Position numbers and translations under genes: made by a program. The notes under the pieces are model-generated. The model was not told the origin of the DNA and ran no database searches. It saw only the letters and a program-made list of their open reading frames with translations. A stretch of DNA of 64,000 bases from a virus (taxonomy: Duplodnaviria; Caudoviricetes): positions 22,883 through 86,882 of the IMG/VR virus record IMGVR_UViG_2857083903_000001. One strand, written 5' to 3'. The number at the start of each line of letters is the position of its first letter. Within the stretch, counting starts at the first letter, position 1. Of the stretch, positions 3,213 to 58,539 are shown in pieces.

Positions 3213-3251
3213 AGGTGGTCCTCCTTCGCTGGCTGTCGTGGGGTGGGCGGG

Positions 3252-3740
3252 TTAGCGGACGGTATTGAAGCCGGGCTTTGGCTGCGCGTAGGGGGATGCC
3301 TGGCGGACTTCGTAGATGCCGCGGTATTCGGTTTCGTGGGCGTCGCCGACGGCGCGGGCGTTGGCTTCCATGCCGTCGGCGGCGCCGGCGAGTTCCCCGG
3401 AGGCTTCCGCGACTCGGTCGAGAGCTTGGGAGGCTTCGATGGCGAGGCCCTGGAAGTAGGGGTCGACGCCTGCTTGACCGCACATTTCGGAGATGCGTCG
3501 GGCCTGTTCGGCGTCGCGGTGCATGCGGTCCTTGAGGAGGTGCAGGTTCTCCTTGAGCCACATCGCGGCAGTGGCGAGGGCCATGAAGCGTGCGGTGAGG
3601 GTGACGAAGTTGAGGATGCCGAAGAGGAGTCCGCCGAACGTTTTGCGGGGGGCGGCCGGCTGGCTGCCGTCGGTCTGGCTGGCGGGCGGTGCGGGCGGGG
3701 TGGGGTCGGCGGGTTCGATTTCGCTGCTCATGGCGGTCAT
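3252..3740 (-). CDS. Transfer-region helical protein
   Basis: ATGA overlap with the upstream gene; C-ending codon bias; TM segment plus amphipathic helices. Confidence 0.65.
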   Translation of the reverse strand: MTAMSSEIEPADPTPPAPPASQTDGSQPAAPRKTFGGLLFGILNFVTLTARFMALATAAMWLKENLHLLKDRMHRDAEQARRISEMCGQAGVDPYFQGLAIEASQALDRVAEASGELAGAADGMEANARAVGDAHETEYRGIYEVRQASPYAQPKPGFNTVR

Positions 3741-5812: not shown

Positions 5813-5934
5813 GTCGCCTCCTTTCAGGGGTTGACAGGCTGTAGTCGGTGGGCGATCCTCGCGCGTGCGCGTTGCGCGTGCGCATTGGACGGCTCGTCAC
5901 CCTCGTTTCCGGCGGGTGATGATGATGAATTCCG

Positions 5935-6159
5935 TCACTGGCTGTGAGCGCGGTAGAAGTCGTTGAGGTGTGCCGCAAGCCCGTTGGCGACCTTCGGGTC
6001 ACCGCTCTCGAGAGCGTCCTTGGCGAGCTTGCGGCACACGTTCGTCCAGAACGTGACGAGGTGCATCGGCCCGGCCGCGGCGGCCCTCGCCTGCGCCGCG
6101 TTGTAGTGCTCGGCCTGGTTGGCGCGGCGGGCCTGCTCGGCCTTCTGCGCGGCGTTCAC
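5935..6159 (-). CDS. Hypothetical protein
   Basis: GTGA overlap with the upstream gene; RBS GGAGG. Confidence 0.6.
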   Translation of the reverse strand: MNAAQKAEQARRANQAEHYNAAQARAAAAGPMHLVTFWTNVCRKLAKDALESGDPKVANGLAAHLNDFYRAHSQ

Positions 6160-6716
6160 AGCGCCTCCTGCTGGCCGAAGAAGTCACCGATGTGCGGGAC
6201 CGGGGCGGCCGTACTGCTGGGCTGGCCGGGGAACTGGAACGGCTGCGGGTTCACGTACTGCACGGCCGGCTGCCCGACCGTCGGGGGCTGGGCCGGCATG
6301 GTCGGCTGCACGCCGGTGAGGGTGTTCGTGCTGGTGGTGAGGGACTTGCCGACCTTGTCGTGGACGCTGGCCGCGGCAATCCCGAGGCGCTGCCTGCGGT
6401 CGTTCTTCTTCTCGAGTTCGCGGGCCCTGCGGGCGGGGAGTTCGACGACTTCCCGCAGGTAGACGGCGTTGACGGCTTCGGTTTCGGCGGCCGCCTTCTC
6501 GACGAGGCGGGCGACCTTGGTGAGGCGGCGGGCGACCTTGCGGGCGCGGCGGCCAGCGGAGCCGGTGCGGTCGCCGTCGATCTGGGTGTGGGCGAGGCGG
6601 GCCTGGATGATCTGGGCGAGCTGACGGAGCTGGGTGGCGTCGGTGGTGAACGTCTGCCGCTGCTCGTCGGTGAAGTCCCGCATGCCCTTCTGCGTCATCA
6701 GGGCTTCGATGTCCAT
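6156..6716 (-). CDS. Plasmid transfer protein, TraA-like
   Basis: RBS AAGGAG; coiled/basic 'ARRARKVARRL' segment; position between spd and traB. Confidence 0.55.
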   Translation of the reverse strand: MDIEALMTQKGMRDFTDEQRQTFTTDATQLRQLAQIIQARLAHTQIDGDRTGSAGRRARKVARRLTKVARLVEKAAAETEAVNAVYLREVVELPARRARELEKKNDRRQRLGIAAASVHDKVGKSLTTSTNTLTGVQPTMPAQPPTVGQPAVQYVNPQPFQFPGQPSSTAAPVPHIGDFFGQQEAL

Positions 6717-14357: not shown

Positions 14358-14903
14358 ATGCACACCACGGTTCACGAACAGACGCAGGCCACGGAAATCC
14401 CGTGCCTCGCCTACGACATCAAGAACCAAGCCCCGACCCAGCGACTCGAAGCAGACGAGGCCGGAGACGCCGTCGTCAAGCACTTCCGCCGTGGCGCCAC
14501 CATCCACGAGTACGACACCACCGACCGTGATGGCATCCCCCTACACGTCGTCATCGCCACCACGGCCGATCAAGGCACCGTCTACGAGTTCCCCGAGACC
14601 CCCGCCACCGTCTCGACCGCATCCTCGCCGCAAGCCGCCACACCGGAGCCTCAGATCGCGCGGCCCGCCCCCACTGGCGCCTATGCTGCCGCCCTCAAGA
14701 CGTGCCGCGCCAAGGGCGCCACTCACGCCCCCGGCGATGCCCTCATGGCCGGACTGTGCCAGGACGTCGTCCAGATCCTCGCCGGCGCCGTCTCCCCGCA
14801 GCTCGTGTGGGAAGGCGCCGTCAAGAAGGGCCTGACTGCGAAGCAACTCCTGATCCTGTGCCATGCCGACTACGCGGCTGTCGATGACCTTCAGTGGGTC
14901 TGA
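14358..14903 (+). CDS. Hypothetical protein
   Basis: RBS GGAG, follows promoter copy 1. Confidence 0.65.
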   Translation: MHTTVHEQTQATEIPCLAYDIKNQAPTQRLEADEAGDAVVKHFRRGATIHEYDTTDRDGIPLHVVIATTADQGTVYEFPETPATVSTASSPQAATPEPQIARPAPTGAYAAALKTCRAKGATHAPGDALMAGLCQDVVQILAGAVSPQLVWEGAVKKGLTAKQLLILCHADYAAVDDLQWV

Positions 14904-14990
14904 TCCACCCGCCAGCCTTCACCACCGTCACCGAAGCACTCGCCCTCCTCGCAACCATCCGGCAACTCCGCTAGCCGAAAGGAACCCGCC

Positions 14991-15176
14991 ATGAGCACCG
15001 GCCGCATCCACGAGACCGACGCAGTGCAGCGAGGCGGCATCGGCCGCACTCTCCCCGTCACCGTCCTCACCGACGACGGCACCCACGCCGTCGTACGCGT
15101 CCAGGACAGCGGCCTGTACTTGAAGGCGGGTGACACCCGCACCGTTCCGTCCAGCATCATCACGCCGCAGCACTGA
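14991..15176 (+). CDS. Small hypothetical protein
   Basis: RBS AAAGGA. Confidence 0.6.
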   Translation: MSTGRIHETDAVQRGGIGRTLPVTVLTDDGTHAVVRVQDSGLYLKAGDTRTVPSSIITPQH

Positions 15177-15195
15177 CCCCCACACCCCCCGATCC

Positions 15196-15240
15196 GGCCC
15201 CGGCCGCCGTCCCCCTCGGCAGCCGGGGTCCTTCGTTTGT
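15196..15240 (+). terminator. Intrinsic terminator
   Basis: ggccccggc...gccggggtcc followed by a T-rich tail. Confidence 0.6.
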
Positions 15241-15252
15241 TCGAGGCACAGT

Positions 15253-15435
15253 TCAGTCGGCCGGCGTCCACGGCGGTGCGGGGCTGGTGCTTTCCCCACC
15301 ACAGAACCAGCAGGTGAACGTGTCCGGCGCCTGATACTTCTGTGTCCACCAGGACATCACCGGCTCGCACCAGACGGCACACTCTTCCCCGCACCAGCCG
15401 CACACGAAGACGAAGTCCACCCGACAGTCCCCCAC
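15253..15435 (-). CDS. Small Cys-rich (zinc-ribbon-like) protein
   Basis: CGWC...CWFC; start uncertain. Confidence 0.4.
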   Translation of the reverse strand: MGDCRVDFVFVCGWCGEECAVWCEPVMSWWTQKYQAPDTFTCWFCGGESTSPAPPWTPAD

Positions 15436-15514
15436 TTCGTACCGTCATGTCCTCGAGGCCATGGTCCCCCATCGCCTAGGGAACGACCGGCGGAAACAGC
15501 GGGACCCTGAGGAC

Positions 15515-15769
15515 ATGACCCCACCGATCCTCGCTTGCAAGGGCTGCGGCGCTACGAAGCCCGAACCTGACGGCACTCCCACCGACCTTTTCCCATCCGA
15601 GCACTGCGGCGACTGCCCGCCCTGGACGTGCGAAGACTGCGGAGCGACCTGCTCCGCTACGGCCCTCTGCTCCTGCTGGACAAGCCTCAACGACATGACC
15701 ACCGCAGACATCAAGGCAATCTTCGCCACAGACGGAACCTTCAACCTGCGGCCGGTGATCGAACCATGA
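15515..15769 (+). CDS. Cys-rich hypothetical protein
   Basis: Several CxxC motifs; RBS GAGG. Confidence 0.55.
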   Translation: MTPPILACKGCGATKPEPDGTPTDLFPSEHCGDCPPWTCEDCGATCSATALCSCWTSLNDMTTADIKAIFATDGTFNLRPVIEP

Positions 15770-16134
15770 CCAGCCGCCCCATGGTGGGCGTCGGCATGCC
15801 GGCTGCCCTCCACCTCGAAGCGTTCGGCCGGGAGATCGACGCCGCGTTCGGGCACCTCCCGTACCTCGTCGGCACTGCAGCCGTCGGCAAGCAGTGGCGC
15901 GACGTAGACGTCCGCCTCATCCTCCCCGACGAGGAGTTCGACACTCTGTTCCCGGCCGTTGATCCGGAACAGCCTGACGGCCGGTGGGGCCTACTGTGCG
16001 CGGCCCTGTCCGAACTCGCCCGCCAGCGCACCGGCCTCCCTGTCGACTTCCAGATCCAGCGCATGAGCGTCGCCAACGACCGCTACCCAGGTCCGCGTCT
16101 CGCCCTCGGCATCCACGACAGGAATGGCCAGTAG
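15766..16134 (+). CDS. Minimal nucleotidyltransferase-like protein
   Basis: YLVGT...RDVDVR...VDFQ, resembling the hG[S/T]-DxD-D pol-beta motif. Confidence 0.55.
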   Translation: MTSRPMVGVGMPAALHLEAFGREIDAAFGHLPYLVGTAAVGKQWRDVDVRLILPDEEFDTLFPAVDPEQPDGRWGLLCAALSELARQRTGLPVDFQIQRMSVANDRYPGPRLALGIHDRNGQ

Positions 16135-16169
16135 GAACGGCACGGAGCGATCGGGCTGGCCCGCACGCT

Positions 16170-16385
16170 CTACGCCGCGGTGCCTGGTCCGGCTTCGCGT
16201 GGGTCTCCGATGGGCCGGGTGAGTGCGTCGTCTGTGAGCAGCCGGCGTTCGGGTGCGGTGGCGTCCAGCTCGAAGTAGTGGAGGCATTCTTCGCAGCGGA
16301 CGCCGTCGATGAGGACCTCGTCCTCGGCGTTGGGGCAGTCGGTGCCGTCTCCGCGTCCGGGGCATCGTTCGCGTGTGTCTGCCAT
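16170..16385 (-). CDS. Small Cys-containing hypothetical protein
   Basis: CPG..CPN..CEEC. Confidence 0.4.
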   Translation of the reverse strand: MADTRERCPGRGDGTDCPNAEDEVLIDGVRCEECLHYFELDATAPERRLLTDDALTRPIGDPREAGPGTAA

Positions 16386-16565
16386 GGGTTGACGGTGCGT
16401 CGCCTGCCGGGGGTGTGGGAGTGGGCGTGGTGGGGCGCACGGGTGTGCGGGTCGGGCAGGGCGGCACTTTGGTGGTCTGGAGTCTCACTGGCCTGGTGTG
16501 AGGGCCTGTCTGGTGGGTGTTGGTGGTTGGGCGGTGAGGGTTCCTGCCCACTCATCCCCGCATGG

Positions 16566-16597
16566 GCATTGTGGCCCCATGCTTAGAGCGGTATGGT
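16566..16597 (+). promoter_or_regulatory. Promoter/operator motif, copy 2
   Basis: gcattgtggccccatgc; TTGTGG-N17-TATGGT. Confidence 0.75.
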
Positions 16598-22756: not shown

Positions 22757-23174
22757 CATGCAGACTACCCGGCACGCGCAGGCAGGCCGGAAAGGCATCA
22801 GGCGGGCCGGGATGGCGCGGGTGTGCTGGCGGCCGGTGTCGGGGCCCCTGGTGTAGGGCGGGAGGACACCGGCCGCAGTCAGACACGTTGCGAAGCAACC
22901 AGTAGGGGGCCGGTCCGATTGCCGCGCTGCGATTCCCCATAGGGAAACGGCTACCGAAACCGGTTACCCACCCGGTTTACCCGCAGACCCCCACCCGAGA
23001 AGCACCCCGACAGTAATTCGAACACCGCCACAGCACCCACAACCCCAGACAAGAGCCAGCACACGATCCCCAACAACCTGGCAGGCCAGGACCGCGCACA
23101 CCGATGATGCACCGGACAACTACCCGTTTTCCACGGAAGATTTTGAGGGGTAAACCTATGCTCACTACCTACAC

Positions 23175-47265: not shown

Positions 47266-48864
47266 TCACGCAGCAGCCACGAACCCGCTGCTCTCCGACC
47301 GGCTTATCTCCTCACCCGTGATCGCCTCCACCAGCGCGCACACCAGGACCTCGGCGGCGTTCGGCGTGACGGCGTTGCCGTACTGCCGGACCTTTTCCCG
47401 CTTGTTACCGAGGACTATGTAGTCATCGGCGAAGCTCATGGCCCGCCCGATCTCGTGAGGCTCGAGCATCCGGAACAGAACGTCGTCGATGTCGACCTCC
47501 CCCCGCACCAGCGCATACCGGTCGCGGGTGGTGAGCGCGCCGATCGGCTCGTTGACGGACCGCGGGGCGCCGGTGCCGTAGTACGGGATCAGCATGTTCT
47601 CAGAGGCACCGGCCGGGGCGACGAGCCCGTGATGGTTACCGGACGCCGTCACAGTGGCGAGGGACTCGCCCACCGACCGGGCGACAGAGCCGCCGCCGCG
47701 GAGCTCCGCGATGAACGGCAGCCACGCCAACCCCGTCTCGTTCCGGGTCGTCATCGTGCGCAGCGGCCCGTGCGCCGAAGCAGCATCCTTCCCATCCCGG
47801 CCCTCCACCGGGACCAGGAGCGGCGGCACCATCAGCGCATCGTTCTCGCGGGTGGTACGGGCAGGCATCGGCTCCCCGACACTGACCGCCGCGTCCCGCC
47901 AGGTACCGCCGGCCGGAACCATCATCGGGACCGGGCGGGCGAACTTCTTCAACCCGGCCTCGATCCGCCTGAGGGTCTTCTCCGCAAGCGGCTTGGCACG
48001 GTCACCGATGCGCTGACCGGGGATCGACCAGTCGATCGCTGCGGCGGCCGGGAGAGCCTCCGGCTCGACGACCTGGTTCCGGCACGAAGTGTTCGGACAC
48101 CGGTAGACGTACTGCTGCCGGTAGCGGCCCATGTCCCGCTTGGGGTCCTTGAACATCTGCATGGCCTGCACCCACGTGTCGCAGCCGGAGCACCAGGCGC
48201 GCGGCCGCAGCCACTTGTCCCAGTCGGGGGTACGACCCAGCGACTCGTGCCAGTAGCCGACGTACAGGCGGTCGCGGGATTGTGGCGCCCGGTGCACGGA
48301 CCGCGGGTTGGCGTGCATCGAGTTCAGGGCGATGATCCGGGTGCGGTATCCGAGCTTGTGGATCTCACCGATCCAGCGATCCCACTGGTCCCAGGCGCGG
48401 ACGTCGACGACGTTCTCGACGATCCCGGCCTTGACCAGGCCGCCCCGCTCGATCACGCCGCGCAGATACAGCGGCACCTCCTCCATCAGCGCACGGGACT
48501 CCTCCTCCGCGGTCGGCTGCTCCTCCTCGTCGTCGAGGCCGGCGAGGAGGTCGAGGAGGCTGCCCTGCATGGCGTTCTGGAAGTCCCGCTTCTTCCCCTT
48601 GGCCACCGACCAGTTGGTGCACTCCGGGGACGCCCAGAAGATGTCGGTGACGGGCCAGTCCCACACCGGCGCCTTACGGATGTCGCCCTGGTAGTGACTG
48701 GTCTCCGGGAAGTTCTCAGCGTGCGACTCAATCGCAAGCCGCCAATGGTTCGCCGCTCGCGCCACCCGGACGCCAGGCACAGCGTGGACGCCCTGCGAGG
48801 ACCCGCCAGCACCACAGAACCAGTCCATGACCGTGAGCGCGTTGTCATCGTTGCGGTAACCCAT
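47266..48864 (-). CDS. C5-cytosine DNA methyltransferase
   Basis: DWFCGAGG, SPECT, VENV, QSRDR, QYGNAV. Confidence 0.9.
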   Translation of the reverse strand: MGYRNDDNALTVMDWFCGAGGSSQGVHAVPGVRVARAANHWRLAIESHAENFPETSHYQGDIRKAPVWDWPVTDIFWASPECTNWSVAKGKKRDFQNAMQGSLLDLLAGLDDEEEQPTAEEESRALMEEVPLYLRGVIERGGLVKAGIVENVVDVRAWDQWDRWIGEIHKLGYRTRIIALNSMHANPRSVHRAPQSRDRLYVGYWHESLGRTPDWDKWLRPRAWCSGCDTWVQAMQMFKDPKRDMGRYRQQYVYRCPNTSCRNQVVEPEALPAAAAIDWSIPGQRIGDRAKPLAEKTLRRIEAGLKKFARPVPMMVPAGGTWRDAAVSVGEPMPARTTRENDALMVPPLLVPVEGRDGKDAASAHGPLRTMTTRNETGLAWLPFIAELRGGGSVARSVGESLATVTASGNHHGLVAPAGASENMLIPYYGTGAPRSVNEPIGALTTRDRYALVRGEVDIDDVLFRMLEPHEIGRAMSFADDYIVLGNKREKVRQYGNAVTPNAAEVLVCALVEAITGEEISRSESSGFVAAA

Positions 48865-49781
48865 CAGGCCGCCCCCCGTTCCCCGTTGTCCTGCGCCTGC
48901 TGCCCGAGCCGACTGATCTGGTTGTTCAGCAACTCCCGGAACGTCACCACCGACTGGTCCCTCAGCGTCACCTCCGCCTCGGCGACACCGTGCTTCTCCG
49001 CGTCCAGGACGATCTGACCCAGCGCATCCGAGTTCCCCCAGCACGACGACGCCTGACCCTGCAGCCGCGCCAGATGATCGACCCCGTCAGCATGGGCGGC
49101 CTGCGCCGGCGGCTCCTCCACATCCACGGAAGGCGCCTGCGGTTCCGGCTTCACCGGCGGGTCCACCGGCACCGGCTCCGGCGCGGCCTGCCGCTGCCAC
49201 TCACTCGGCGGATGAGCCGCAGAGAACTGCACCACCGCGTCACGAGAACCGTCGTTGTACAACGACAGCCCGAACTGGTCACCCAAGTTCGTCGCACAGC
49301 GCTTCACCGCCTGCGAGAGGCTCGTCTTCATCGCCATGTCGTGGGCATCGCCCACCGACGGCTGGTTCACCGCGTCCCCGGCAGCCCCGTCCTCCCAGTG
49401 GGAGATCTCCCGCCCGCTGGTGTCGTAGATGGTCAGCCGGACCTGGGCGCGGTAGACGACCGTCCAGGCCGTGAACGGGTCGCCGTAGTACTCGCCCTGC
49501 TTGTTCTTCCGCCGGAAGCCCTCCTGCCCGTGGTTGTGCACCAGGTCCAGAGAGAGCGTCTCGATGGAGAAGCCACCGAAGCCGAAGATGCGGATGAGCT
49601 GGCGCCGGACGTCCCAGGCTTCGAGGTGAGCCAGCCCGCGAAGGTTCTGGACCCGGTTCGGGTTGATGCCACCGTGCAGCAGGCGGAGCTGCGGGGCAGT
49701 CAGCCGGGCGACCTGATTTTGGGTGTGCGAGGTGGGGCCCTCCGCCATCGTGCCAGCGGGGGCCTCAATGGCCTGAGCCAT
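48864..49781 (-). CDS. Rad52/Sak-like single-strand annealing protein
   Basis: LIRIFGFGGF, AMKTSLSQAVKRCATNLGDQFGLSLY. Confidence 0.85.
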   Translation of the reverse strand: MAQAIEAPAGTMAEGPTSHTQNQVARLTAPQLRLLHGGINPNRVQNLRGLAHLEAWDVRRQLIRIFGFGGFSIETLSLDLVHNHGQEGFRRKNKQGEYYGDPFTAWTVVYRAQVRLTIYDTSGREISHWEDGAAGDAVNQPSVGDAHDMAMKTSLSQAVKRCATNLGDQFGLSLYNDGSRDAVVQFSAAHPPSEWQRQAAPEPVPVDPPVKPEPQAPSVDVEEPPAQAAHADGVDHLARLQGQASSCWGNSDALGQIVLDAEKHGVAEAEVTLRDQSVVTFRELLNNQISRLGQQAQDNGERGAA

Positions 49782-49867
49782 GAGGGATCTCCTATGAGGT
49801 TGTACTCAACGAAGAGGTGGCGGCCGGCCCGGCCACATCACAGGCCAGCCCACACCCCGGAATCGAC

Positions 49868-50671
49868 TTAGTCGGGCATCCCGAACTGGTTGATCAACAC
49901 CTGCCGCAGGATCGTGCCGGGGAAGACGCGAGCACCCAGCTCCTTCGACAGCTCAGGCGCGAGCTCATGCAACGCGGTGCGCTGCGAGTCCTCCACCCGA
50001 ACCGGAAGGGTGTTCCACCCGGTATCAGCCCACGTGTGCTTCGGGAACCGAACCGGCTTCGGCATCGACCACGAGCCATCCAGCAACTCGCTGATCCCCT
50101 TAGCCGCAGCCTGCTCCAGCGAAACACCCGAAGACTCGGAAGCAGACCGGAAGTGCGCGATCACAGGCTCCGGCAAGTACAGCTTCATATCGAGGCCGGT
50201 ACCCCTGTCCACCCCCAGCTCGCTGCACGCGTACGCCATGATGATGCCGCCCTCACTGATCCGACGGCCCTCCTGGTCCGACAGACGCGGCAACTCGGCC
50301 TGGAGACGCCCCCGGAGCTCGGCGTTGACGTCCACCGACAGCACCGCCCGCTTCAGACCGGTGCCCTTCAGGCGCCGCTGCCCCGTCTTCGGGGGAAGCC
50401 ACTCACCGGACAGGACCTTCTCGTACGCCTCCTCAGCCACGATCCGAATCGACGTCTCGAACTCGTCGAGCGCGTCCTGCAACGCCGCCTTCAGTTCGTC
50501 ATCCGTGGAAACGCTCAGAGGGGAGGTGGCAGCCGGGTCGGCAGTCTGCTTCAGCTTGTTCCATCCGCCAGGGGCCAGCAGCGTCTCAATGGCCTGAGCC
50601 CACTCGTGATGGCCTTCCTGCCTCAGATGCCGGGCGCCGGCGGCCGCACTCGAACGGAGGGAGCCTGCCAT
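49868..50671 (-). CDS. Putative DNA-binding regulator (repeated RHH-like segments)
   Basis: LSVSTDDELK, LSVDVNAELR, LPVRVEDSQR segments; RBS AAAGGA; operators upstream. Confidence 0.5.
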   Translation of the reverse strand: MAGSLRSSAAAGARHLRQEGHHEWAQAIETLLAPGGWNKLKQTADPAATSPLSVSTDDELKAALQDALDEFETSIRIVAEEAYEKVLSGEWLPPKTGQRRLKGTGLKRAVLSVDVNAELRGRLQAELPRLSDQEGRRISEGGIIMAYACSELGVDRGTGLDMKLYLPEPVIAHFRSASESSGVSLEQAAAKGISELLDGSWSMPKPVRFPKHTWADTGWNTLPVRVEDSQRTALHELAPELSKELGARVFPGTILRQVLINQFGMPD

Positions 50672-50758
50672 GGGGCGGGGTCCTTTCTTCGGGCGCCCGT
50701 TTGGCGGGTGGCCAGGCGGGCGCGTGGGGGAGTTTGCCACGCCAGTGTCCTCCAGTCT

Positions 50759-50863
50759 GCATTGCGACGCCATGCCTAGATTGCATGGTGGTCGGGGCGG
50801 CGCCCCAACACCACAGACAATACCGTTCTAGGCATTGCTTGGCAATGCGTATCTCGGTATGGT
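50759..50863. promoter_or_regulatory. Divergent promoters with operator copies 5 and 6
   Basis: gcattgcgacgccatgc at 50759; perfect GCATTGC-N3-GCAATGC at 50832-50848; TTGCTT-N17-TATGGT on + and TTGCCA-N17-TATTGT on -. Confidence 0.75.
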
Positions 50864-50895
50864 GGGCACACACCGCACCACAAGGGGGAGCCACC

Positions 50896-51234
50896 ATGAA
50901 CGCCAGCAGCCGCCAGGCCCGCCACACCATCCGCACCCGGACCCGCACCCAGCGCGCCGCCTCCCGCATCAACCGCCGCGGCAACGGCTCCCTCACCACC
51001 CACTGCCTCGCCGCTGGCCTCACCCCCAAGGAAGCCCGCACCGTCGCCAGCTCCCTCCGGAAGAACGCCGCCAAGGCCGGCGTGGTCGGCACCACCGGCA
51101 TCGCCTACACCAAGGGCCGCGCCCGCCAGTGCACCCGCTACACCCCCGCCCAGGTCGCCGCCCTCGCCGTCGTCTACCGCCCCCGCAAGGCCGCCTACGT
51201 CCAGGCCGCCGCCCGTCTCGCCCTCGCCGCCTGA
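50896..51234 (+). CDS. Basic hypothetical protein
   Basis: RBS GGGAG; YRPRK motif. Confidence 0.65.
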   Translation: MNASSRQARHTIRTRTRTQRAASRINRRGNGSLTTHCLAAGLTPKEARTVASSLRKNAAKAGVVGTTGIAYTKGRARQCTRYTPAQVAALAVVYRPRKAAYVQAAARLALAA

Positions 51235-51295
51235 CCGGAGGCAACGATCCCGGCCAGCAAGGGCATCGTGGGCACCAGCCGCATAGGAGGACGCC

Positions 51296-51748
51296 GTGAG
51301 TCTTCACCTCGTACCCGTCCGTTTCCAGGACGCCGCAGCCTTCGTCGCCATGTGGCACCGGCACAACGCCCCTCCCATCGGCTGCAAGTTCTGCATAGGC
51401 GTGGCCGACGAAGACGGAGTTCTGCGCGGTGTTGCCATAGTCGGTCGGCCCGTAGCCCGCCACTTCGACAACGGCCAGACCCTCGAGGTCACCCGCACCG
51501 CCACCGACGGCACCGCGAACGCCAACTCGATGCTCTACGGCGCCGCATGGCGGGCAGCCCGAGCGCTCGGCTACACCCGGCTGATTACATACACACAGGC
51601 TGCCGAGACGGGCGCCAGTCTCCGTGCAGCTGGATGGCATGTCATCGCCCACCGACCCGCCCGCCCCGGCTGGAACGTCCCTTCGCGCCCCCGAAAGCTC
51701 AACGGCACCGAGCACATGCCGCGCAGTCTTTGGGAAGCCACTGCCTGA
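51296..51748 (+). CDS. XF1762-family (GNAT-like) protein
   Basis: WHRH, GVAIVGRPVAR, LEVTR, ITYT..ETGASLRAAGW. Confidence 0.75.
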   Translation: MSLHLVPVRFQDAAAFVAMWHRHNAPPIGCKFCIGVADEDGVLRGVAIVGRPVARHFDNGQTLEVTRTATDGTANANSMLYGAAWRAARALGYTRLITYTQAAETGASLRAAGWHVIAHRPARPGWNVPSRPRKLNGTEHMPRSLWEATA

Positions 51749-51763
51749 CCCTGGACACGGAGA

Positions 51764-51794
51764 AGGCCACCAGCCCGATGGGGGTTGGTGGCCT
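51764..51794 (+). terminator. Hairpin
   Basis: aggccacca...tggtggcct. Confidence 0.5.
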
Positions 51795-51988
51795 GAGGTG
51801 TGGGTGTTGCGTAGGCGCAGCATACAAAACCAGTTCACCACCTGGCTAGCCCGGCGCCCGAAGCCCGCCCAACTCCCGCCCGGCGCGCGGCCAAGGGGAG
51901 CGGAGGGAACACCGCGGCGGATCGGCCGTAGCGTGATCCGTGCAGCCTCCAAGAGGCACCCGCACCCCCAACCCAACCCCCCACCTGC

Positions 51989-52113
51989 ACTTTCAGTAAA
52001 ACCTCAGAAGCCCCCACCCCCAGCAGCCCGTCGTGGTGTACGGCCGGACCACCCCCGCCCCTCGCCCCCGCGACATCCCCTAGTGGGTGGTGAGCTGAGG
52101 TTTTACCGAAAGT
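51989..52113. repeat. 19-bp inverted repeat pair, 87 bp apart
   Basis: actttcagtaaaacctcag (51989-52007) and ctgaggttttaccgaaagt (52095-52113), one mismatch. Confidence 0.8.
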
Positions 52114-52148
52114 ATTGATCTTGAGTCGGGGGCGGGCACAATACCCCC

Positions 52149-53006
52149 ATGGAACCGCTCACACTCCTGAACCACTGGCTCGACACCGCACCCCTGCGCT
52201 CGTCCAGCCGCATCGAGTACGAGCGTGAAATCACCCGCTGGCTCACCTGGTGCGCCGCACAGCACCCCCCGATCAACCCCTTCGACATCAGCATCGAAGA
52301 CATCGCCGCCTGGTGCGCCGGCTACCTCACCGACCAACTCGACGGCCGTCCCTTCAACGGACCCGACGCCCTCACCCACATCGCACAGCACCACCCCGCC
52401 GCAGCCCTCACCCACGACCGGCGCATCACCGCCCTCACCCAATGGCACGAAGCCGCCAAACAGCACGGCGCGATCCGCCTCGTCCCCGACCTGACCATGC
52501 TGCGCTCCGGCCTCGACCGCGACGCCAACCCCCCACGCCGCCTCACCCCACCCGAACGCGCCATGCTCTTCTACTGCATCGGAATGTGGGGCCCCGACCA
52601 CGCCCGCCACTACCGACGCGACCGGCTCGTCGCCTTCCTCCTCCTCGAGGGCTTGCGCCCCGCCGAGGTCACCCGTGTCGACATCCGCCACCTCTACGAC
52701 GTCCAGGACGGCACCTGGGAAGTCCGCGCCCCCGACTACGAGTACGAGGCCGTCGGTAAGAAACACGTCCTGGAGTCGCTGACCGTGGCCGCGTTGAAGG
52801 CGTACCTGCCGCACCGTATCCGGCCCGCCGAAGGCGTCCACGCCCTCATCCTCGGCCAGGGCGGCCGCCCCATCACCACCGACTACCCGAACAAGCTGGT
52901 CCGGCAGATCGTCTCCACCGAGCCCTCCCTCGCCCAACGCCAGCCCCCCGTCACCGCCGACACCATCGCGCACACGGGATTCTGGGACACGCCGGTCGGC
53001 GGATAG
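52149..53006 (+). CDS. Tyrosine-recombinase-like protein lacking the catalytic C-terminus
   Basis: RDRL..LLEGLRPAEV (Arg I); HxxR position reads DTIAHT; ends before the Tyr box. Confidence 0.7.
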   Translation: MEPLTLLNHWLDTAPLRSSSRIEYEREITRWLTWCAAQHPPINPFDISIEDIAAWCAGYLTDQLDGRPFNGPDALTHIAQHHPAAALTHDRRITALTQWHEAAKQHGAIRLVPDLTMLRSGLDRDANPPRRLTPPERAMLFYCIGMWGPDHARHYRRDRLVAFLLLEGLRPAEVTRVDIRHLYDVQDGTWEVRAPDYEYEAVGKKHVLESLTVAALKAYLPHRIRPAEGVHALILGQGGRPITTDYPNKLVRQIVSTEPSLAQRQPPVTADTIAHTGFWDTPVGG

Positions 53007-53039
53007 CATGCCCGCACCCGCCGACGAGAAGGACCCGTT

Positions 53040-53288
53040 GTGCCCGAGGACGACCTCACCCCCACAGAGCAGCCCGCACCGCCTACAGCCGCGGACAAGG
53101 ACCTGCAAAGAGAGGCTGTCAGGTTCGGGATGATCCTCGTCGGAGCGATCGTCGGCACCGCACTGTGGTTGCCCAGGGAGTACAGCCAAAGAGCGTTCCG
53201 ACTGATCGACGTGTTCAAGCGAGACCCGAAGCTGGCACCCGAGTACGACGACGGGGACGAGGACGACCTGCCTTCCATCGAGCGCTGA
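53040..53288 (+). CDS. Small membrane protein
   Basis: One TM segment; RBS AAGGA. Confidence 0.5.
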   Translation: MPEDDLTPTEQPAPPTAADKDLQREAVRFGMILVGAIVGTALWLPREYSQRAFRLIDVFKRDPKLAPEYDDGDEDDLPSIER

Positions 53289-53352
53289 ACACACCCCAAG
53301 TAACCCGCCAGTACCCGCATCTGCCCGCCCACACGGGGAGGAGGATGCGGGC

Positions 53353-53679
53353 ATGACCTGCGAAGACACCAACCCCCGGCGCATCACCTGGGAAGTCCAA
53401 CTCTACGAGCCCGTCAGCCGTGTCTGGATGTGCGAAGCATACGGACGAGCCACCACCACCGCGGCGCCCGCCGACATCGCCCACGCCGTCCTGGCCGGCT
53501 ACCTCGCCCACCACCCACCCCGCAGCACCGACACCTACCGGGCCCTCGCACGCCCCGACCACGGACCGGCCGCGATCGTGAGAGCCGACCAGCTCGAGGA
53601 CGACGGCTGGACAGCAGGACCAGACGTCCGCCAAGCCCTCCCCGTCTACCTACGCGAGGCGCTGGCGGCGGGCACCTAG
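53353..53679 (+). CDS. Hypothetical protein
   Basis: RBS GAGGA; codon bias. Confidence 0.55.
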   Translation: MTCEDTNPRRITWEVQLYEPVSRVWMCEAYGRATTTAAPADIAHAVLAGYLAHHPPRSTDTYRALARPDHGPAAIVRADQLEDDGWTAGPDVRQALPVYLREALAAGT

Positions 53680-53687
53680 CAGCGGGA

Positions 53688-54338
53688 TCAGGCTGCCTTG
53701 CGTGCTGGTCGGCGGGCTCTCGCCTGCATGTGCTCCACGTTGATGAGTAGCCCAATGCGGTCGGAGTGGTACGGCCAGCGCGCGACGCCACCTTCCATGT
53801 GCAGGTGCATGTAGGTTCGGCTCGGCTTCGAGGTCCCCACCTCAAGGGGTACTCCGCCAGGCTCGACTAGCAGGCCCATGTTCACAGGAGATGTTCCGCA
53901 GTCGGTGATGAGGCCCAGACTGGACGACCTGTTCATGCTGATGTCAGTCTTCCAGGAGAGCCACCCATCGCAGTCGGCGCCGTTCTGTTCCATGTCCAGC
54001 TCCGGACAGAACAGCGGGTGGGTGCCTCGCAGTTTGGCGGCGTTGCCGACACGGTCGGCGTCCGGGCCGGGCATGGCGTTCACGGAGATCTCTACGCGGG
54101 CGTACAAGCCGGCCATGAGCCCCGTGTGAACCTTGAGGAAGGCTGCCACCTGCTCCAGAGGCCAGTAGGCGGGATCGTGCTGGGTCTGTCCGATCTGGGC
54201 CACGTACTGCTCGTCGAAGTCCCGTGCCTTGAAGCGGTTTCGCCAGTCCGCGAGGACAGCCGCTGCGCCAGGGTGGGTCAGGATCTCGTCCAACATCGAT
54301 TCGGCGATCTCTTCGTGCATGGTGCGTGCGCTGCTCAC
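53688..54338 (-). CDS. Hypothetical protein coupled to the recombinase
   Basis: GTGA overlap; lower GC. Confidence 0.6.
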   Translation of the reverse strand: MSSARTMHEEIAESMLDEILTHPGAAAVLADWRNRFKARDFDEQYVAQIGQTQHDPAYWPLEQVAAFLKVHTGLMAGLYARVEISVNAMPGPDADRVGNAAKLRGTHPLFCPELDMEQNGADCDGWLSWKTDISMNRSSSLGLITDCGTSPVNMGLLVEPGGVPLEVGTSKPSRTYMHLHMEGGVARWPYHSDRIGLLINVEHMQARARRPARKAA

Positions 54339-55369
54339 AGGCCGATTCCAATCAGTGCGTTGTCGTTCTCGTCCCACTGGTCAACGATCTGCATGTAGCC
54401 GTCCAAGACCTTCGAGCCGTCCGCGTGCCCAGTCACCGCAGCGATGGCCTTCCGGTCCTTCCCCGCCCGGCGGGCCTCCGTGGCCATGCCAGACCGCACT
54501 GAGTGGCCGGTGAACAGCTCCTCGAAGCCGGCGCGCAGCCCGGCCGCCGTGATGAGGTCGCCGGCGCGCTGCGGGGAGAGGCCCTGGGGTTGGACGGCAC
54601 CGGTGTGGTGGATACACCGGAACGCGTGCCGGTCGGGGTCGGTGATGCGGGCGGCGGCGGCCCACGTCTTCCAGGCCCGGACGGGGCAGGTGTCGGGGTT
54701 GGTGCCGTAGGGGACGGCGACGGTGCGGGGTTCGGTCTTGGAGACGCGGACGTCGACCAGGAGGCCGTTGTCGTCGTCGCGGATGTTGCGGAGGCGGAGT
54801 CCGGCGAGTTCGGCGCGGCGGGCGGCGATGGCGAAGCCGAGGAGGATCATGGCGCGGTCGCGGAGGCCGAAGATGTCGGTGTCGCACTTGGAGACGATGA
54901 CCCGCAGGTCGACCAACCGCATCGCGGGTGCCTTGCCGCGGCCGCGCCTGGGTTCCTCGGCGGCTTCGGCCTGCTTGCGGTAGTCCTTCAGCAACTCGCG
55001 GGCGGCGCGGGTGGCGTCGGGGTCGACGAGGATGCTGTACGGCGGCCGCCGGAGGGTGACGACGACGCCGGCGAGCTTGCGGTCGATGGTGGCGTAGGCG
55101 CGTTTCTCGCGGTTCCAGAGGTAGTCGACGAAGGCGCGGAGGGTGCCGCGGGTGGCGGCGGTGGTGGGGATCTGGAGTTGGGTGCAGAAGGTTTCCCAGG
55201 TGCGCCAGTCGCTGGCGTAGGAGCGGGTGGTGTTGTCGGGGCGTTGTCCGGCGGCGTGTTGGTCGCTGGCGGCGTCGAGGGTGGCGAGGCGGGCGCGGAG
55301 TTCGGCGCTGTACTGGTCGGGTAGGAGCGGCGGTTCGGCCTGTCTGGCAGGCAGGCGCTCAGCGCTCAT
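54335..55369 (-). CDS. Cre-like tyrosine recombinase/resolvase
   Basis: NTTRSYASDW, RDRAMILLG..AARRAEL, SKT, TCPVRA, GHSVRSG, TGH..LDGY. Confidence 0.9.
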   Translation of the reverse strand: MSAERLPARQAEPPLLPDQYSAELRARLATLDAASDQHAAGQRPDNTTRSYASDWRTWETFCTQLQIPTTAATRGTLRAFVDYLWNREKRAYATIDRKLAGVVVTLRRPPYSILVDPDATRAARELLKDYRKQAEAAEEPRRGRGKAPAMRLVDLRVIVSKCDTDIFGLRDRAMILLGFAIAARRAELAGLRLRNIRDDDNGLLVDVRVSKTEPRTVAVPYGTNPDTCPVRAWKTWAAAARITDPDRHAFRCIHHTGAVQPQGLSPQRAGDLITAAGLRAGFEELFTGHSVRSGMATEARRAGKDRKAIAAVTGHADGSKVLDGYMQIVDQWDENDNALIGIGL

Positions 55370-55638
55370 GACTTCCAGTCCAGTTGCTCGCCCTTGCGGA
55401 TGTACTTGCCGCTGCGGTGGTCGAAGATGAGCGCCTTGCCTTGCTGTACGCCGATGCTCTTTCGGACAGGCATCCCCCATAGTCGGCAACCTTCGAGCCC
55501 CTCGGCGTCCTCAGGGTTCAGGAAGACCTCCAGCTTGTCGGAGTTGGTGATGGTGAGGGCCCACGCCTGTGTGTCGTGAATCTCCGTCCCCAGGGATGAC
55601 GTCATGAGCCGTTCGAGGGCGGTTCTCCAGTCGCTCAC
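55366..55638 (-). CDS. Hypothetical protein
   Basis: Coupled at both ends. Confidence 0.6.
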   Translation of the reverse strand: MSDWRTALERLMTSSLGTEIHDTQAWALTITNSDKLEVFLNPEDAEGLEGCRLWGMPVRKSIGVQQGKALIFDHRSGKYIRKGEQLDWKS

Positions 55639-55991
55639 GGCCGCCAGCTCTCCTTGTAGTCCGGGTGGTCGGAGTACGCCAGGCCCATCTGCTGGGCCAC
55701 GAACAAGAGGGCATCCACGAACGGGCGTGGCTGGCCGTGCACTGCGAGGTCCAGTTCGTCCAGGACCGCGATCTTGGCGTCTGATTCACGGAGAACGCGC
55801 GCGGGATCGTGGCGGGCGATGTGCTCAGCGTTGTCCCCGTCGCTGGGGTCGGTCCGCCACTCCGGTCCGGTGCACTCTGCGGCGACATCCTTGTCCTCAG
55901 CAATGCGCTTGCGGAGGAAGGTGGTGAGGTCGTCGACGGCGGGCGGCCCGGAGGCGGCGATGATGCGGTTCGTCAGTTCGGCTTCGTGCAT
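55635..55991 (-). CDS. DUF6221-like protein
   Basis: EHIARHDPARVLRE...YSDHPDYKESWRP. Confidence 0.75.
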   Translation of the reverse strand: MHEAELTNRIIAASGPPAVDDLTTFLRKRIAEDKDVAAECTGPEWRTDPSDGDNAEHIARHDPARVLRESDAKIAVLDELDLAVHGQPRPFVDALLFVAQQMGLAYSDHPDYKESWRP

Positions 55992-56178
55992 GCCTCATTC
56001 TACGATTTTGAGGCTTGATATGTGAGCTTATCGTGCCCCAGTAGCGCGCCTCCCTGACTAACGGGCCATCAACTCCGTTTAGCAGACCGTCAATAGACCG
56101 CTGACAAACGAGCCCGGCTGCGCTACGCTCATCTCGTTAGCCCGGCGTTCATCCGGGTTCATCGCAACGGGAGGCATC

Positions 56179-56616
56179 TTGAAGATCACGGTCACCATCG
56201 ACCAACCCACCGGAGACTTCCAGGACCGACTCCTGGCCCTCCTCGCCGAACACGCCGCCAACGTCGAGATCGACACCTCCTGGACCGTGCCGCGCGCGGA
56301 GAACTACTTCACCCGTCTGCCGCCCCGCGCGCAGCGCATCGTCCGCCAGGCCGTCGCCCGAGGCGGGTACGTGGCAGCAGACGACCTCCGCGACTCGCCC
56401 GAGGCCAGCCTTCGCGGACACAGCGGGGCACTGACTCGCGCTCTACGCAGCGGGGCCATGGGAGGCGACTGGCCCGACGGGATGCCACTGCCGGTCTTGG
56501 CTCAAGGCCCCGGCTTCGGGAAAGTCGTCGGCTACCGAGTGCCCGACGAACTCCTGGACGTGTTCCGTACCGCTGTCACCAACATCGACGGGCAGCCGCC
56601 CACCACTGAGAAGTGA
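56179..56616 (+). CDS. Hypothetical (wHTH-like) protein heading the cassette array
   Basis: TTG after GGAGG; ends TEK*. Confidence 0.65.
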   Translation: MKITVTIDQPTGDFQDRLLALLAEHAANVEIDTSWTVPRAENYFTRLPPRAQRIVRQAVARGGYVAADDLRDSPEASLRGHSGALTRALRSGAMGGDWPDGMPLPVLAQGPGFGKVVGYRVPDELLDVFRTAVTNIDGQPPTTEK

Positions 56617-56627
56617 GGACACCGACC

Positions 56628-56822
56628 ATGGACATGCAGGAGATCAACGAGCGCGTCGCCCAGATTGCCGCATCTGGGGACGATGAGGAGCAGCACGGCA
56701 TGGAGGACTCGCTGTACGAGGACGTGCTGAAGGCGATTGCCGAGGGAGCACCGAACGCGTCCGAACTGGCCGCCGCTGCGCTCAAGACGAAGGACATGGA
56801 CTTCAGCCGCTGGTACGCGTGA
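56628..56822 (+). CDS. Cassette ORF 1, acidic helical protein
   Basis: ATG supplied by repeat 1. Confidence 0.65.
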   Translation: MDMQEINERVAQIAASGDDEEQHGMEDSLYEDVLKAIAEGAPNASELAAAALKTKDMDFSRWYA

Positions 56823-56859
56823 CTGCCTTCAAGAACACCGAGAAGTGAGGACAGCGACC

Positions 56860-56991
56860 ATGGCCGGCATCTACGACGACGGCGCCACCTACGGCCCCGA
56901 CCCGAGCGCCACCATCCCGACCGACACGCCCGCTGACCCGATCTACGACGACGGGGACGTGTACGGCGCCGACCGCACCACCGAGAAGTGA
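56860..56991 (+). CDS. Cassette ORF 2, 43 aa with a duplicated IYDDGxxYG
   Basis: ATG from repeat 2; stop in repeat 3. Confidence 0.55.
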   Translation: MAGIYDDGATYGPDPSATIPTDTPADPIYDDGDVYGADRTTEK

Positions 56992-57002
56992 GGACACCGA
57001 CC

Positions 57003-57179
57003 ATGGCACTTGCCGTCCCACGCGGGGTCTGCACCGTCTGCGAACGCTCGTACCAGTTGAAGGCCGACGGCACCGTGCGCGCCCACTGGGCTCGCTCCGC
57101 CGACGGCACCGCCGCGCCAGGCTTGAAGGACTGCGCTGGTACCGGACAGCCACCTGCCGACCACGCCACCGAGAAGTGA
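57003..57179 (+). CDS. Cassette ORF 3, CxxC...H...C zinc finger
   Basis: ATG from repeat 3; stop in repeat 4. Confidence 0.6.
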   Translation: MALAVPRGVCTVCERSYQLKADGTVRAHWARSADGTAAPGLKDCAGTGQPPADHATEK

Positions 57180-57189
57180 GGACACCAGC

Positions 57190-57618
57190 ATGAGCGCAGC
57201 TGCCATCTACGCCGACGCCGCCACCTACGAGCGCAAGGCCCGCGAACTCCTCAACACCCTGAACCCGACCATGCCGTGGGAGCAGCGCTTCCAGATCGAG
57301 GACCAGGCCGAGGAACTGCGTGAGGACGCCCGCAGTATCCGCACCCGCGTCGAGAATAGCGTCGAGCACATCCGGAACTACTACGGGTTGAACCTCCGTG
57401 TCGGGTTGGAGGTGAAGCACGAGGGCCGGGCGGGTCGGATCGTCGGGTTCGCGGGCCAGTACGTGGCAGTGCACCTGGACGGGGACGAGACTTACGTCGT
57501 CTGCCATGCCACGGCGGAGATGGAGTACCCCGAGGGCGTGCAGGTCGGGCCGGGCCCCGACGAGCGGTTCGCCCACCTCGTTCAGGTACCCGCCGCCGAC
57601 CGCAACAACGAGAAGTAG
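57190..57618 (+). CDS. Cassette ORF 4, coiled coil + small beta domain
   Basis: ATG from repeat 4; stop in repeat 5. Confidence 0.65.
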   Translation: MSAAAIYADAATYERKARELLNTLNPTMPWEQRFQIEDQAEELREDARSIRTRVENSVEHIRNYYGLNLRVGLEVKHEGRAGRIVGFAGQYVAVHLDGDETYVVCHATAEMEYPEGVQVGPGPDERFAHLVQVPAADRNNEK

Positions 57619-57629
57619 GGACACCGATC

Positions 57630-57893
57630 GTGGGGCATCAGATCATCAAGCAGCCGGATGGCCGTCTCGCTGTCTTCTCCAGCGTCGTTGACGCCTTCGT
57701 CGTCATGGACGCAACGCCCGAGGAACTGGTCGAGTGGTACGCCCAGGAAGCTGCTCAGGATGCGCGTGATCGGACACAGCGTCTCCTGGACAAGCTCCAC
57801 TCCGAAGGCGCTCAGTTCGTGTACGGCCGTCGGGCACTGACGTGGGAAGAAGCCTCACGGATGAGCGAGGAACACGGAGGGGATCTCCACTGA
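57630..57893 (+). CDS. Cassette ORF 5
   Basis: GTG from repeat 5. Confidence 0.65.
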   Translation: MGHQIIKQPDGRLAVFSSVVDAFVVMDATPEELVEWYAQEAAQDARDRTQRLLDKLHSEGAQFVYGRRALTWEEASRMSEEHGGDLH

Positions 57894-57907
57894 TCCGGTG
57901 TGTATGA

Positions 57908-57944
57908 CGGTGCCCCGCCTGAGGTGAATTCAGGCGGGGCACCG
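57908..57944. terminator. Hairpin between the convergent array and dcd
   Basis: cggtgccccgcctga / tcaggcggggcaccg. Confidence 0.75.
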
Positions 57945-57957
57945 GTGCGTCCGCACC

Positions 57958-58539
57958 CTACCCAGGCAGGACGGTGCGGTGGAAGTTCTGCCACGACCGG
58001 GATGCGGTCGGCCCCCTCTGCCCCTGATACCGGGAGCCGCGCACCGCGCTCCCGTACGGATGCTCAGCCGGGCCACTCATCTGCGTCACCGCCAACTGGC
58101 CCACCTTCATCCCCGGCCACAACTTGATCGGCAGGCGGGCCAGGTTCGCCAGCTCCAGCGTGATGTGACCCTCGAACCCCGGATCGATGAACCCCGCCGT
58201 CGAATGCGTCACCAACCCAAGCCGCCCCAACGAGCTCTTGCCCTCCAGCCGGGCAGCCAGATCATCCGGCAACGACACCCACTCCAACGTCGCCGCCAAC
58301 ACGAACTCCCCCGGATGCAGCACAAACGGCTCCCCCGCCGCAGGCACCACCAGCCGCGTAAGGTCCGGCTGCGACCGCGATGGGTCGATGCATGAGTAGC
58401 GGTGGGAGTCGAACACCCGGAACTCGCCGCCCAGACGGACATCCAACGACGCCGGCTGAAGCATCCCCTCCTCGTACGGGGAGACACCCAGCCGGCCAGT
58501 CGTTATCGCGGCATGCAGATCACGGTCACACAGCAGCAT
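57958..58539 (-). CDS. dcd: dCTP deaminase
   Basis: [46 protein letters not shown]. Confidence 0.95.

Follow-up and report, generated by a model that had tools for sequence, protein, structure and literature searches.

A stop-to-start junction repeated between small genes of Streptomyces plasmid-phages as a possible translational joint and recombination linker

Organization of the array and anatomy of the junction

The window analyzed here, a 64,000-nt stretch of DNA from a virus of the Caudoviricetes (positions 22,883 to 86,882 of IMG/VR record IMGVR_UViG_2857083903_000001), contains six small + strand open reading frames (ORFs), c0 to c5, which lie head to tail at 56179-57893 and code for 145, 64, 43, 58, 142 and 87 amino acids (aa), respectively. 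The original prediction, made from the letters of the window alone, had described these ORFs as a modular cassette array joined by a conserved repeat that supplies the stop codon of one gene together with a ribosome-binding site (RBS) plus start codon for the next. We found five direct + strand copies of this repeat, referred to below as the junction, with cores (GAGAAGTGAGGACA) at 56608, 56840, 56983, 57171 and 57610, i.e., at the previously reported spacings of 232, 143, 188 and 439 nt; approximately 23-37 nt are conserved. A search with the 14-nt core allowing up to two mismatches gave 5 matches against 0.17 expected, a number reached in 0 of 100 shuffles. With a 27-mer and up to three mismatches, 3 matches were found against 0.00 expected, copies 4 and 5 lying beyond that limit.

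The array opens with the head gene c0 (family F6; 56179..56616), which has a classical RBS of its own and ends in TTEK-TGA within junction 1 (56592..56630; TGA at 56614-56616, ATG at 56628-56630). Cassette c1 (56628..56822) is followed by junction 2 (56824..56862), which is located entirely 3' of the c1 stop and is untranslated, and then by c2 (56860..56991). Junction 3 (56967..57005), which equals the family consensus, connects c2 with the Cys-rich c3 (57003..57179), and junction 4 (57155..57192), whose spacer is shorter by one base, connects c3 with c4 (57190..57618). Junction 5 (57594..57632), with TAG as its stop and GTG as its start codon, is the most diverged copy and leads into c5 (57630..57893), the last gene of the array, which has no junction tail. 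When 53 junctions of other genomes were combined into a profile, it detected only these five copies in the 6.43-Mb genome, with E-values of 4.7e-7, 5.4e-5, 2.6e-9, 1.2e-5 and 0.003 for junctions 1 to 5 and the next match at E 3.6; no reverse-complement copy was found in this genome by the same profile search.

The consensus of the junction is (CC)GACCGCxxCACC-GAG-AAG-TGA-GGACACCGACC-ATG. Its first part is read as xDRxTEK, the last residues of the upstream protein; the TGA falls within GAGAAGTGAGG, which resembles a Shine-Dalgarno (SD) sequence, and the start codon follows at a distance of 11 nt from the stop. Among 137 distinct copies from all loci, 136 had a stop codon at the place of the TGA, and in 99 the distance from core to start codon was exactly 6 nt (11 nt from the stop). 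When only positions outside the search pattern were considered (76 copies), conservation extended from about -14 to +22. Independent PGAP annotations also show 11-nt gaps between array genes. Within the window, the upstream gccgacc extension is present in copies 3-5, copies 1, 3, 4 and 5 encode the (T/N)EK-stop of the preceding ORF, and every copy is followed by an ATG or GTG 10-11 nt past the stop, all in agreement with the original description. Copy 2 differs in that the c1 TGA (56820-56822) lies 13 nt ahead of it. This end of c1 is native, because c1 aligns to the last position of the PHROG 10733 profile. At least four copies elsewhere are likewise located behind an earlier stop codon, and therefore the 5' half of the junction need not be translated and is kept at the DNA or RNA level, as had been proposed.

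Occurrence of junctions in plasmids, genomes and phages

An exact 20-mer of the junction was present in 19 genome loci, 17 of them from Streptomyces, with approximately one chance match expected in that collection. A 24-mer with up to three mismatches was detected in 21 of 401 sampled Streptomyces genomes, compared with 0 for a reversed control. In IMG/VR, 22 contigs carried junctions at a total of 26 loci, and among 72,556 PLSDB plasmids there were 24 with junctions, including pSAM1 and pSLE1; all of these plasmids were from Streptomyces, all were typed as non-mobilizable and many were 85-94 kb long. The number of copies per array varied from 1 to about 12. On the other hand, searches of isolated phages gave no match to the 2.1-kb region at 1e-5, and the 44-nt junction had only chance-level matches (E >= 0.8) among 50,697 isolated phage records. 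The 21.7-kb locus examined in the related plasmid-phage pZL12 had no junction copy. Loci from other plasmids, genomes and IMG/VR contigs that were compared with the window are designated by L numbers. One of them, the plasmid-phage-like L065 (G404:C26), contains two junction arrays (3311-6575 and 14481-16572), about 8 kb apart on the same strand. In pSLE1 (L107, 3269-4669), junction copies occur in another context, after a helix-turn-helix gene and before a Ku gene, and not by an integrase gene. We did not find the junction described in the open-access literature, where substrings of the motif also had no occurrence in a relevant context among the matches listed.

Cassette content and block boundaries in related arrays

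Gene content and gene order differ among relatives of the window. Loci with an integrase of 80-87% identity, nine in all and located on ~85-94 kb Streptomyces contigs, had 0, 1, 2, 3 or 9-10 junctions in the corresponding position and differed in their cassettes, and the same cassette families recurred with other neighbors and in other orders. For example, c4 directly follows the head gene in L015 (82.6% nucleotide identity from one repeat to the next) and ends the array in L011 and L068; the IMG/VR locus L080 has a 90% identical c2 with a junction at either end; relatives of c3 occur in L080 and L093; and in plasmid NZ_CP058980 a c5 homologue comes after a c4 homologue. The repeat was conserved exactly at the boundaries of these variable genes, which upholds the modular character suggested for the array.

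Breakpoints between related arrays were mostly located in the junctions themselves. L072 and L074 share a 293-bp block of 99.3% identity that runs from GAGAAGTGAGG of one junction to GACACCGACC of the next and has unrelated flanks; besides, three cassettes of L072 are replaced by a single one in L074, and the two sequences become homologous again from the next junction that they have in common. Considering within-array blocks of at least 88% identity, 16 of 19 ends fell in a junction in both loci, compared with ~20% expected by position alone, the 19 ends being non-independent and several of them involving L017. Near-identical plasmid pairs (L103/L104, 98.9%; L069/L086, 99.8%) had the same arrays, and no recent event was caught among them. 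A break between the IMG/VR loci L081 and L083, which are 99.9% identical from position 889 and unrelated before it, was rejected as a junctional event: it lies 1.1 kb upstream of the junction and looks like the end of an element integrated at two different sites.

The junction also leaves a mark on proteins. In the c4 family (61 proteins), the body ends in ...PDERFAHLV(E/Q)V followed by 0-3 residues in most members, and an xDRxTEK-like extension is present in 10 of the 61. The last ~7 residues of the window c4, ADRNNEK, come from junction 5. Of five members whose place in an array could be assigned, three with a following cassette have the tail (window, L015 and L097) and two at the last position are tail-less (L068 and L011). 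On a tree of c4 bodies, three changes of the tail character are needed, at least two of them being imposed by well-supported branches. In the AlphaFold model of c4 (pLDDT 87), which has a long helical hairpin and a small beta-barrel, tail residues 137-142 have a pLDDT below 50 and are predicted to be disordered. Judged from this sequence comparison, the junction-encoded tail is an add-on DNA module that was gained at least twice in the c4 family. A fold search with c4 returned, for its barrel, only weak KOW/Tudor/SH3-like matches, e.g., the PcrA/UvrD C-terminal Tudor and the Spt5 KOW domains (best PDB E 0.08), and a role of c4 in binding RNA polymerase is only a guess from this model.

Cassette and head-gene families

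The 136 junction-led proteins formed 75 sequence clusters, 47 of which were singletons. They are 35-298 aa long (median 82 aa in the 131 proteins from other loci) and differ in predicted composition. Pfam assigned no family to 128 of 130 tested cassettes and DUF6354 to the other two; overall, Pfam, PHROGs and NCBIfam returned only families of unknown function for the cassettes. This also applies to the PHROG matches of four cassettes in the window, namely c1 (PHROG 10733, E 1.9e-25), c3 (PHROG 6601, E 7.8e-8), c4 and c5 (PHROG 14682, E 4e-5). Most of the ORF c2, which belongs to repeat family D2, is made up of a 34-nt IYDDGxxYG unit present twice (56869-56974); the same unit opens c4 (57205-57238), and this observation suggests that c2 was derived from the 5' end of a c4-type cassette.

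The cassettes are varied; the array heads are drawn from a few conserved genes, represented by families F6, F0 and F23, and in pZL12 the F0 head gene is present but the repeat is not. For c0, with which the window array begins, there are 190 Streptomyces homologues, and 42 of the 120 homologues listed end in EK, their C-termini otherwise differing. Searches with c0 gave no match in Pfam, PHROGs or NCBIfam, and an Atlas search yielded unnamed actinobacterial clusters and a weak lead to DUF6416.

One could imagine that the repeats reflect nothing other than shared ancestry, i.e., tandem duplication of one gene together with its junction and divergence of the ORFs beyond recognition. A few distant within-array paralogues, such as two in L019 at 36% identity, and the c4 motif repeated in c2 are in line with such a history. 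We consider it hardly credible given the number and diversity of the families (75 clusters, 35-298 aa, differing compositions), the matches of several cassettes to different PHROG families, the occurrence of the c4 family both with and without the junction tail, and the fact that the untranslated spacer is better kept than the coding bodies of true homologues (see below).

The neighboring recombinase and the annealase

A tyrosine recombinase (integrase) gene is found at 54338..55489 on the - strand (Pfam Phage_integrase, E 7.4e-13; PHROG 1, integrase). The original prediction had called this enzyme Cre-like, and these matches support only a generic tyrosine recombinase. It is the last gene of a divergent leftward unit that consists of a DUF6221 gene (55638..55991, - strand; Pfam PF19730, E 4e-26), a 90-aa ORF and the integrase, in that order. 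The array diverges from this unit, the recombinase itself being separated from it by the two small genes. Also in agreement with the prediction, a gene for a Rad52/Rad22-family single-strand annealing protein is present at 48864..49781 on the - strand (Pfam PF04098, E 3.3e-16), and this protein is a candidate catalyst of short-homology exchange.

It had been suggested that cassettes are exchanged in an integron-like manner, with the neighboring tyrosine recombinase recognizing the junction and excising or inserting cassettes site-specifically. Same-orientation cassettes that seem to have no promoters of their own and adjoin a divergent tyrosine recombinase would fit this mechanism, as would the arrays found at the same place in relatives with the same integrase. 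However, we found no attC-like or lox/dif-like architecture. No inverted repeat or dyad symmetry was detected at any junction, consistent with the earlier remark that attC-type palindromy is missing, and single-stranded DNA folds of the five copies and one bottom strand were no better than those of shuffled sequences (z-scores between -0.22 and +1.61). Among NCBIfam models of the integron-integrase type, the best reached 31 bits, the cut-off being 220. Nor were the arrays tied to the recombinase: the ~5 kb on each side of the 9-copy L066 array contain no tyrosine recombinase, the array of CP108822 adjoins a different "recombinase family protein", the junctions of pSLE1 lie in another context, and four of the nine loci with a related integrase have no junction. 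Conversely, five larger, junction-free Streptomyces plasmids that are not phages (L098-L102, corresponding to NZ_CP108848, CP108498, CP108389, CP108650 and CP130724; locus positions 2850-4970) have an F6 head gene (~140 aa) and a tyrosine recombinase gene as a divergent pair. Because dyads, hairpins and an integron integrase signature are all lacking and some arrays have no tyrosine recombinase close by or adjoin recombinases of other kinds, we regard a site-specific, integron-like mechanism as very unlikely, and this part of the original prediction was not sustained.

The F6 head gene and the recombinase may constitute a functional module, e.g., a recombinase with an accessory factor. In one of the array-free plasmids (L099, 4990-5005), GACCGCGCCACCGAG, the 5' half of the extended junction, is present ~20 nt past the head-gene stop, after which the sequences diverge; this could be what is left of an array that was lost, or a match by chance.

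The junction as a translation signal

The core pairs with the 16S rRNA 3' end of this genome itself (GGATCACCTCCTTTCT, 6 copies) at -10.7 kcal/mol. We rejected the possibility of an unusually strong SD, as plain GGAGG gives -10.4 kcal/mol. Junction windows are predicted to be open, with a median at the 83rd percentile of unpaired probability (63 junctions). A stop codon within the SD-like core and a short stop-to-start distance represent the anatomy of a translationally coupled (termination-reinitiation) junction. A site scan found no promoter-like or terminator-like site at the junctions and no promoter-like site inside the array, and no Rfam RNA family was detected in 55500-58200 (E up to 1).

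These features raise the question of whether the junction is purely an expression signal, either an optimized coupling or initiation site or a binding site for a factor (RNA-binding protein, small RNA or RNase), maintained by purifying selection while cassettes turn over by illegitimate recombination followed by selection. Its stop, SD, spacing and start are in register in a region predicted to be open, and the same consensus is seen across elements whose cassettes share only ~67% protein identity, with no within-array homogenization. There is also a precedent in the start-associated sequences (SAS) of Cluster K mycobacteriophages, a conserved start-associated motif that extends beyond SD pairing (PMC3203893). 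Illegitimate recombination, however, would rarely hit an 11-nt gap or rebuild a junction, yet 16 of 19 block ends are junctional and the 99.3% block of L072/L074 is cut exactly from junction to junction. Besides, an RBS needs no dispensable disordered tail such as that derived from the 5' half of the junction, which was gained at least twice in one family, and the genome has no reverse-complement copy for an antisense RNA. An expression signal acting alone is, in our opinion, an unlikely explanation, if one that deserves serious attention.

Flanking regions and the carrier element

The divergent control region between the leftward unit and the array (55992..56178) contains a promoter-like site for the leftward unit and a motif, gatatgtgagcttatcg, in common with pZL12. 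The TTG start of c0 is preceded in this region by a GGGAGG RBS, and a promoter for the array itself probably lies here as well. The gatatgtgagcttatcg motif (window 55992-56040; pZL12 L001 13800-13850) is located within an inverted repeat, acgat...atcgt, and overlaps the leftward promoter-like site; an operator is one possible role for it, a site for the recombinase itself another.

At the 3' end, the array is closed by a hairpin with a perfect 15-bp stem and a 7-nt loop (57908..57944; RNA fold of -38 kcal/mol), situated between the convergent array and dCTP deaminase genes. The original prediction had a terminator at this place. A simple terminator scan omits the hairpin because it has no T run, and we consider it a likely two-way terminator. 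The dCTP deaminase gene (57958..58539, - strand; Pfam DCD, E 5e-44) is the right-hand border of the locus and is kept in relatives, with 72-76% nucleotide identity in L014, L056, L061, L067 and L068.

The source replicon of the window is a second contig of 86,882 bp alongside a 6.34-Mb chromosome. Its gene set includes ParA, DciA, WhiB, a C5-methylase, the Rad52-family annealase, dCTP deaminase and collagen-like tail genes, together with two tyrosine-recombinase-like genes, and parts of 49707-55314 are 84.7% identical to the Streptomyces plasmid-phage ZL12. Based on this similarity and on gene content, the carrier is therefore classified as a pZL12-like Streptomyces plasmid-phage, that is, as far as its sequence indicates, a replicon of its own of ~85-95 kb with partition and phage genes. 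Further observations concern nucleotide metabolism: a weak Mom-like match (E 4e-4) is present at 51296-51745, the dCTP deaminase gene borders the array, and in pSAM1 (L096, 7246-7980) thyX adjoins dcd. For this phage group, these genes hint at a role in nucleotide pools or DNA modification.

A dual-purpose joint

We favor, with moderate confidence, the interpretation that the junction is a dual-purpose joint, i.e., a translational-coupling signal that, being shared among genes, doubles as a short-homology recombination linker. According to this model, the junction closes the upstream ORF and offers an SD, GAGAAG-GAGG, that overlaps the stop codon and lies 9 nt before the next start, so that a single transcript starting at the head gene would be translated cassette after cassette, through termination-reinitiation or else through tight coupling of initiation. 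At the same time, 23-37 nt common to otherwise unrelated genes of pZL12-like plasmid-phages and prophage-like elements would form a short-homology patch. An exchange inside the junction could then insert, delete, duplicate or replace whole expression-ready cassettes with reading frames intact, whether through template switching or through homologous recombination that relies on RecA of the host or on an annealase of the phage. Exchange driven by homology rather than by a site-specific enzyme would fit because breakpoints lie in the junction and the outcome is cassette-ready, the same explanation as was offered for a motif of T4-type phages (PMC2839356).

Several observations weigh against this interpretation or limit its second half. 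A gene border in these arrays is also a junction, so selection acting after illegitimate recombination would leave the same breakpoints. Junction flanks from the same array did not resemble one another more closely than those from different arrays (upstream, 0.517 versus 0.479, permutation p ~0.07; downstream, 0.547 versus 0.625), and therefore no sign of local gene conversion or concerted evolution was seen. In 87 pairs of homologous cassettes the bodies had 73.5% DNA identity, and the untranslated stop-to-start spacer was 91.7% identical in the 68 pairs of equal spacer length; 5 of the 11 spacer nucleotides belong to the search pattern, which introduces ascertainment, and the other 6 are roughly 87% identical. 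The absence of within-array likeness and the better-kept spacer point to direct selection on the junction, for which coupled translation or a bound factor would be the simplest cause. SD pairing is ordinary, and translation alone therefore leaves the conserved ACACCGACC spacer and the upstream GACCGCxxCACC unexplained. The universal consensus argues at least as much for purifying selection on function as for recombination. Moreover, the universally shared ~23-27 nt are near the lower limit for homologous recombination, and the Rad52-family annealase of the window was not found in five other array-bearing genomes.

A bolder version of the dual-purpose joint, which we put forward tentatively and think rather unlikely, is that the arrays draw on a communal pool in which at least 75 small "dark" protein families, plausibly serving host takeover or counter-defence, would circulate as linker-labelled cassettes moved by short-homology annealing, perhaps as circles, with no dedicated site-specific recombinase. 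If this were true, the system would be a translation-level counterpart of the integron, and the disordered tail would be the price paid by the upstream protein. In practical terms, a scan for junctions pulls out accessory-gene arrays of Streptomyces plasmid-phages along with their uncharacterized small proteins, and plug-in polycistronic expression in Streptomyces might be designed after this natural joint.

Comparison with known systems

Integrons (IntI, attI, attC and Pc) express their promoterless cassettes from one end and have at the cassette borders attC sites, which are imperfect palindromes that fold as single strands. The locus studied here resembles them in having a one-way array of cassettes beside a divergent tyrosine recombinase gene and a content that varies between relatives. 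The difference is that integron borders are recombination sites, whereas the borders described here are translation signals.

A closer parallel is offered by the idea of linkers in modular phage evolution, according to which short conserved sequences at module borders guide exchange. To our knowledge, there are few clear natural examples of such linkers, the best being the promoter-early stem-loops (PeSLs), which act via promoters and terminators. PeSLs are conserved regulatory motifs located between small genes, mostly of unknown function, in a plastic region of T4-type phages; insertions, deletions and replacements between relatives are bounded by the motif, which was proposed to be a Botstein-type linker for homologous recombination that delivers expression-ready cassettes (PMC2839356). 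Mini-circles are also reported to have been demonstrated for PeSLs (PMC2839356; PMC4122927). The junction is similar in that it is repeated between small ORFs of a plastic region and bounds the differences between relatives. However, a PeSL comprises a sigma-70-like promoter and a terminator stem-loop and makes each cassette one transcription unit, whereas the junction is a stop-SD-start joint that would act inside one operon, has no promoter match or hairpin, is read as a protein tail in its 5' half, and occurs in Streptomyces plasmid-phages.

The original prediction had also raised the alternative of a shared translational-control site comparable to the SAS of mycobacteriophages. In Cluster K mycobacteriophages, SAS and extended SAS (ESAS) are built on a 13-bp sequence, GGGATAGGAGCCC, that lies 3-7 bp before start codons and is scattered over half of the genome (PMC3203893). 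They are found mostly in gaps of >50 bp, half of them carry 17-bp inverted repeats, and no role in recombination was proposed for them (PMC3203893). Both motifs are asymmetric, have one orientation, occupy the RBS position of actinobacteriophage non-structural genes belonging to different families, contain an SD core plus conserved bases beyond rRNA pairing, and are absent from the host genome. In contrast to SAS, the junction is 23-37 nt long, has another sequence, includes the upstream stop codon, is arranged in tandem at 10-11 nt gaps, and forms one or two arrays per element. A translational site of this kind fits the anatomy of the junction and is probably half of the answer.

Conserved repeats (CR1-CR4) of Cluster M mycobacteriophages, reportedly described by Pope et al. 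in 2014, resemble the junction in being placed between many small genes in one region. Inserted genes are said to come "with associated copies of CR3", and stem-loops are noted upstream of CR3 and CR4 (PMC7953290).

Taken together, the junction belongs to a known kind of element, the conserved regulatory linkers between accessory genes exemplified by PeSLs, Cluster K SAS and Cluster M repeats. Its distinguishing features are the stop-SD-start joint, which would act within one operon and is partly read as a protein tail, its occurrence in Streptomyces plasmid-phages, and a pool of at least 75 families. If the dual-purpose interpretation is correct, the logic of linkers extends here to translation, in another lineage of viruses and another phylum of hosts.

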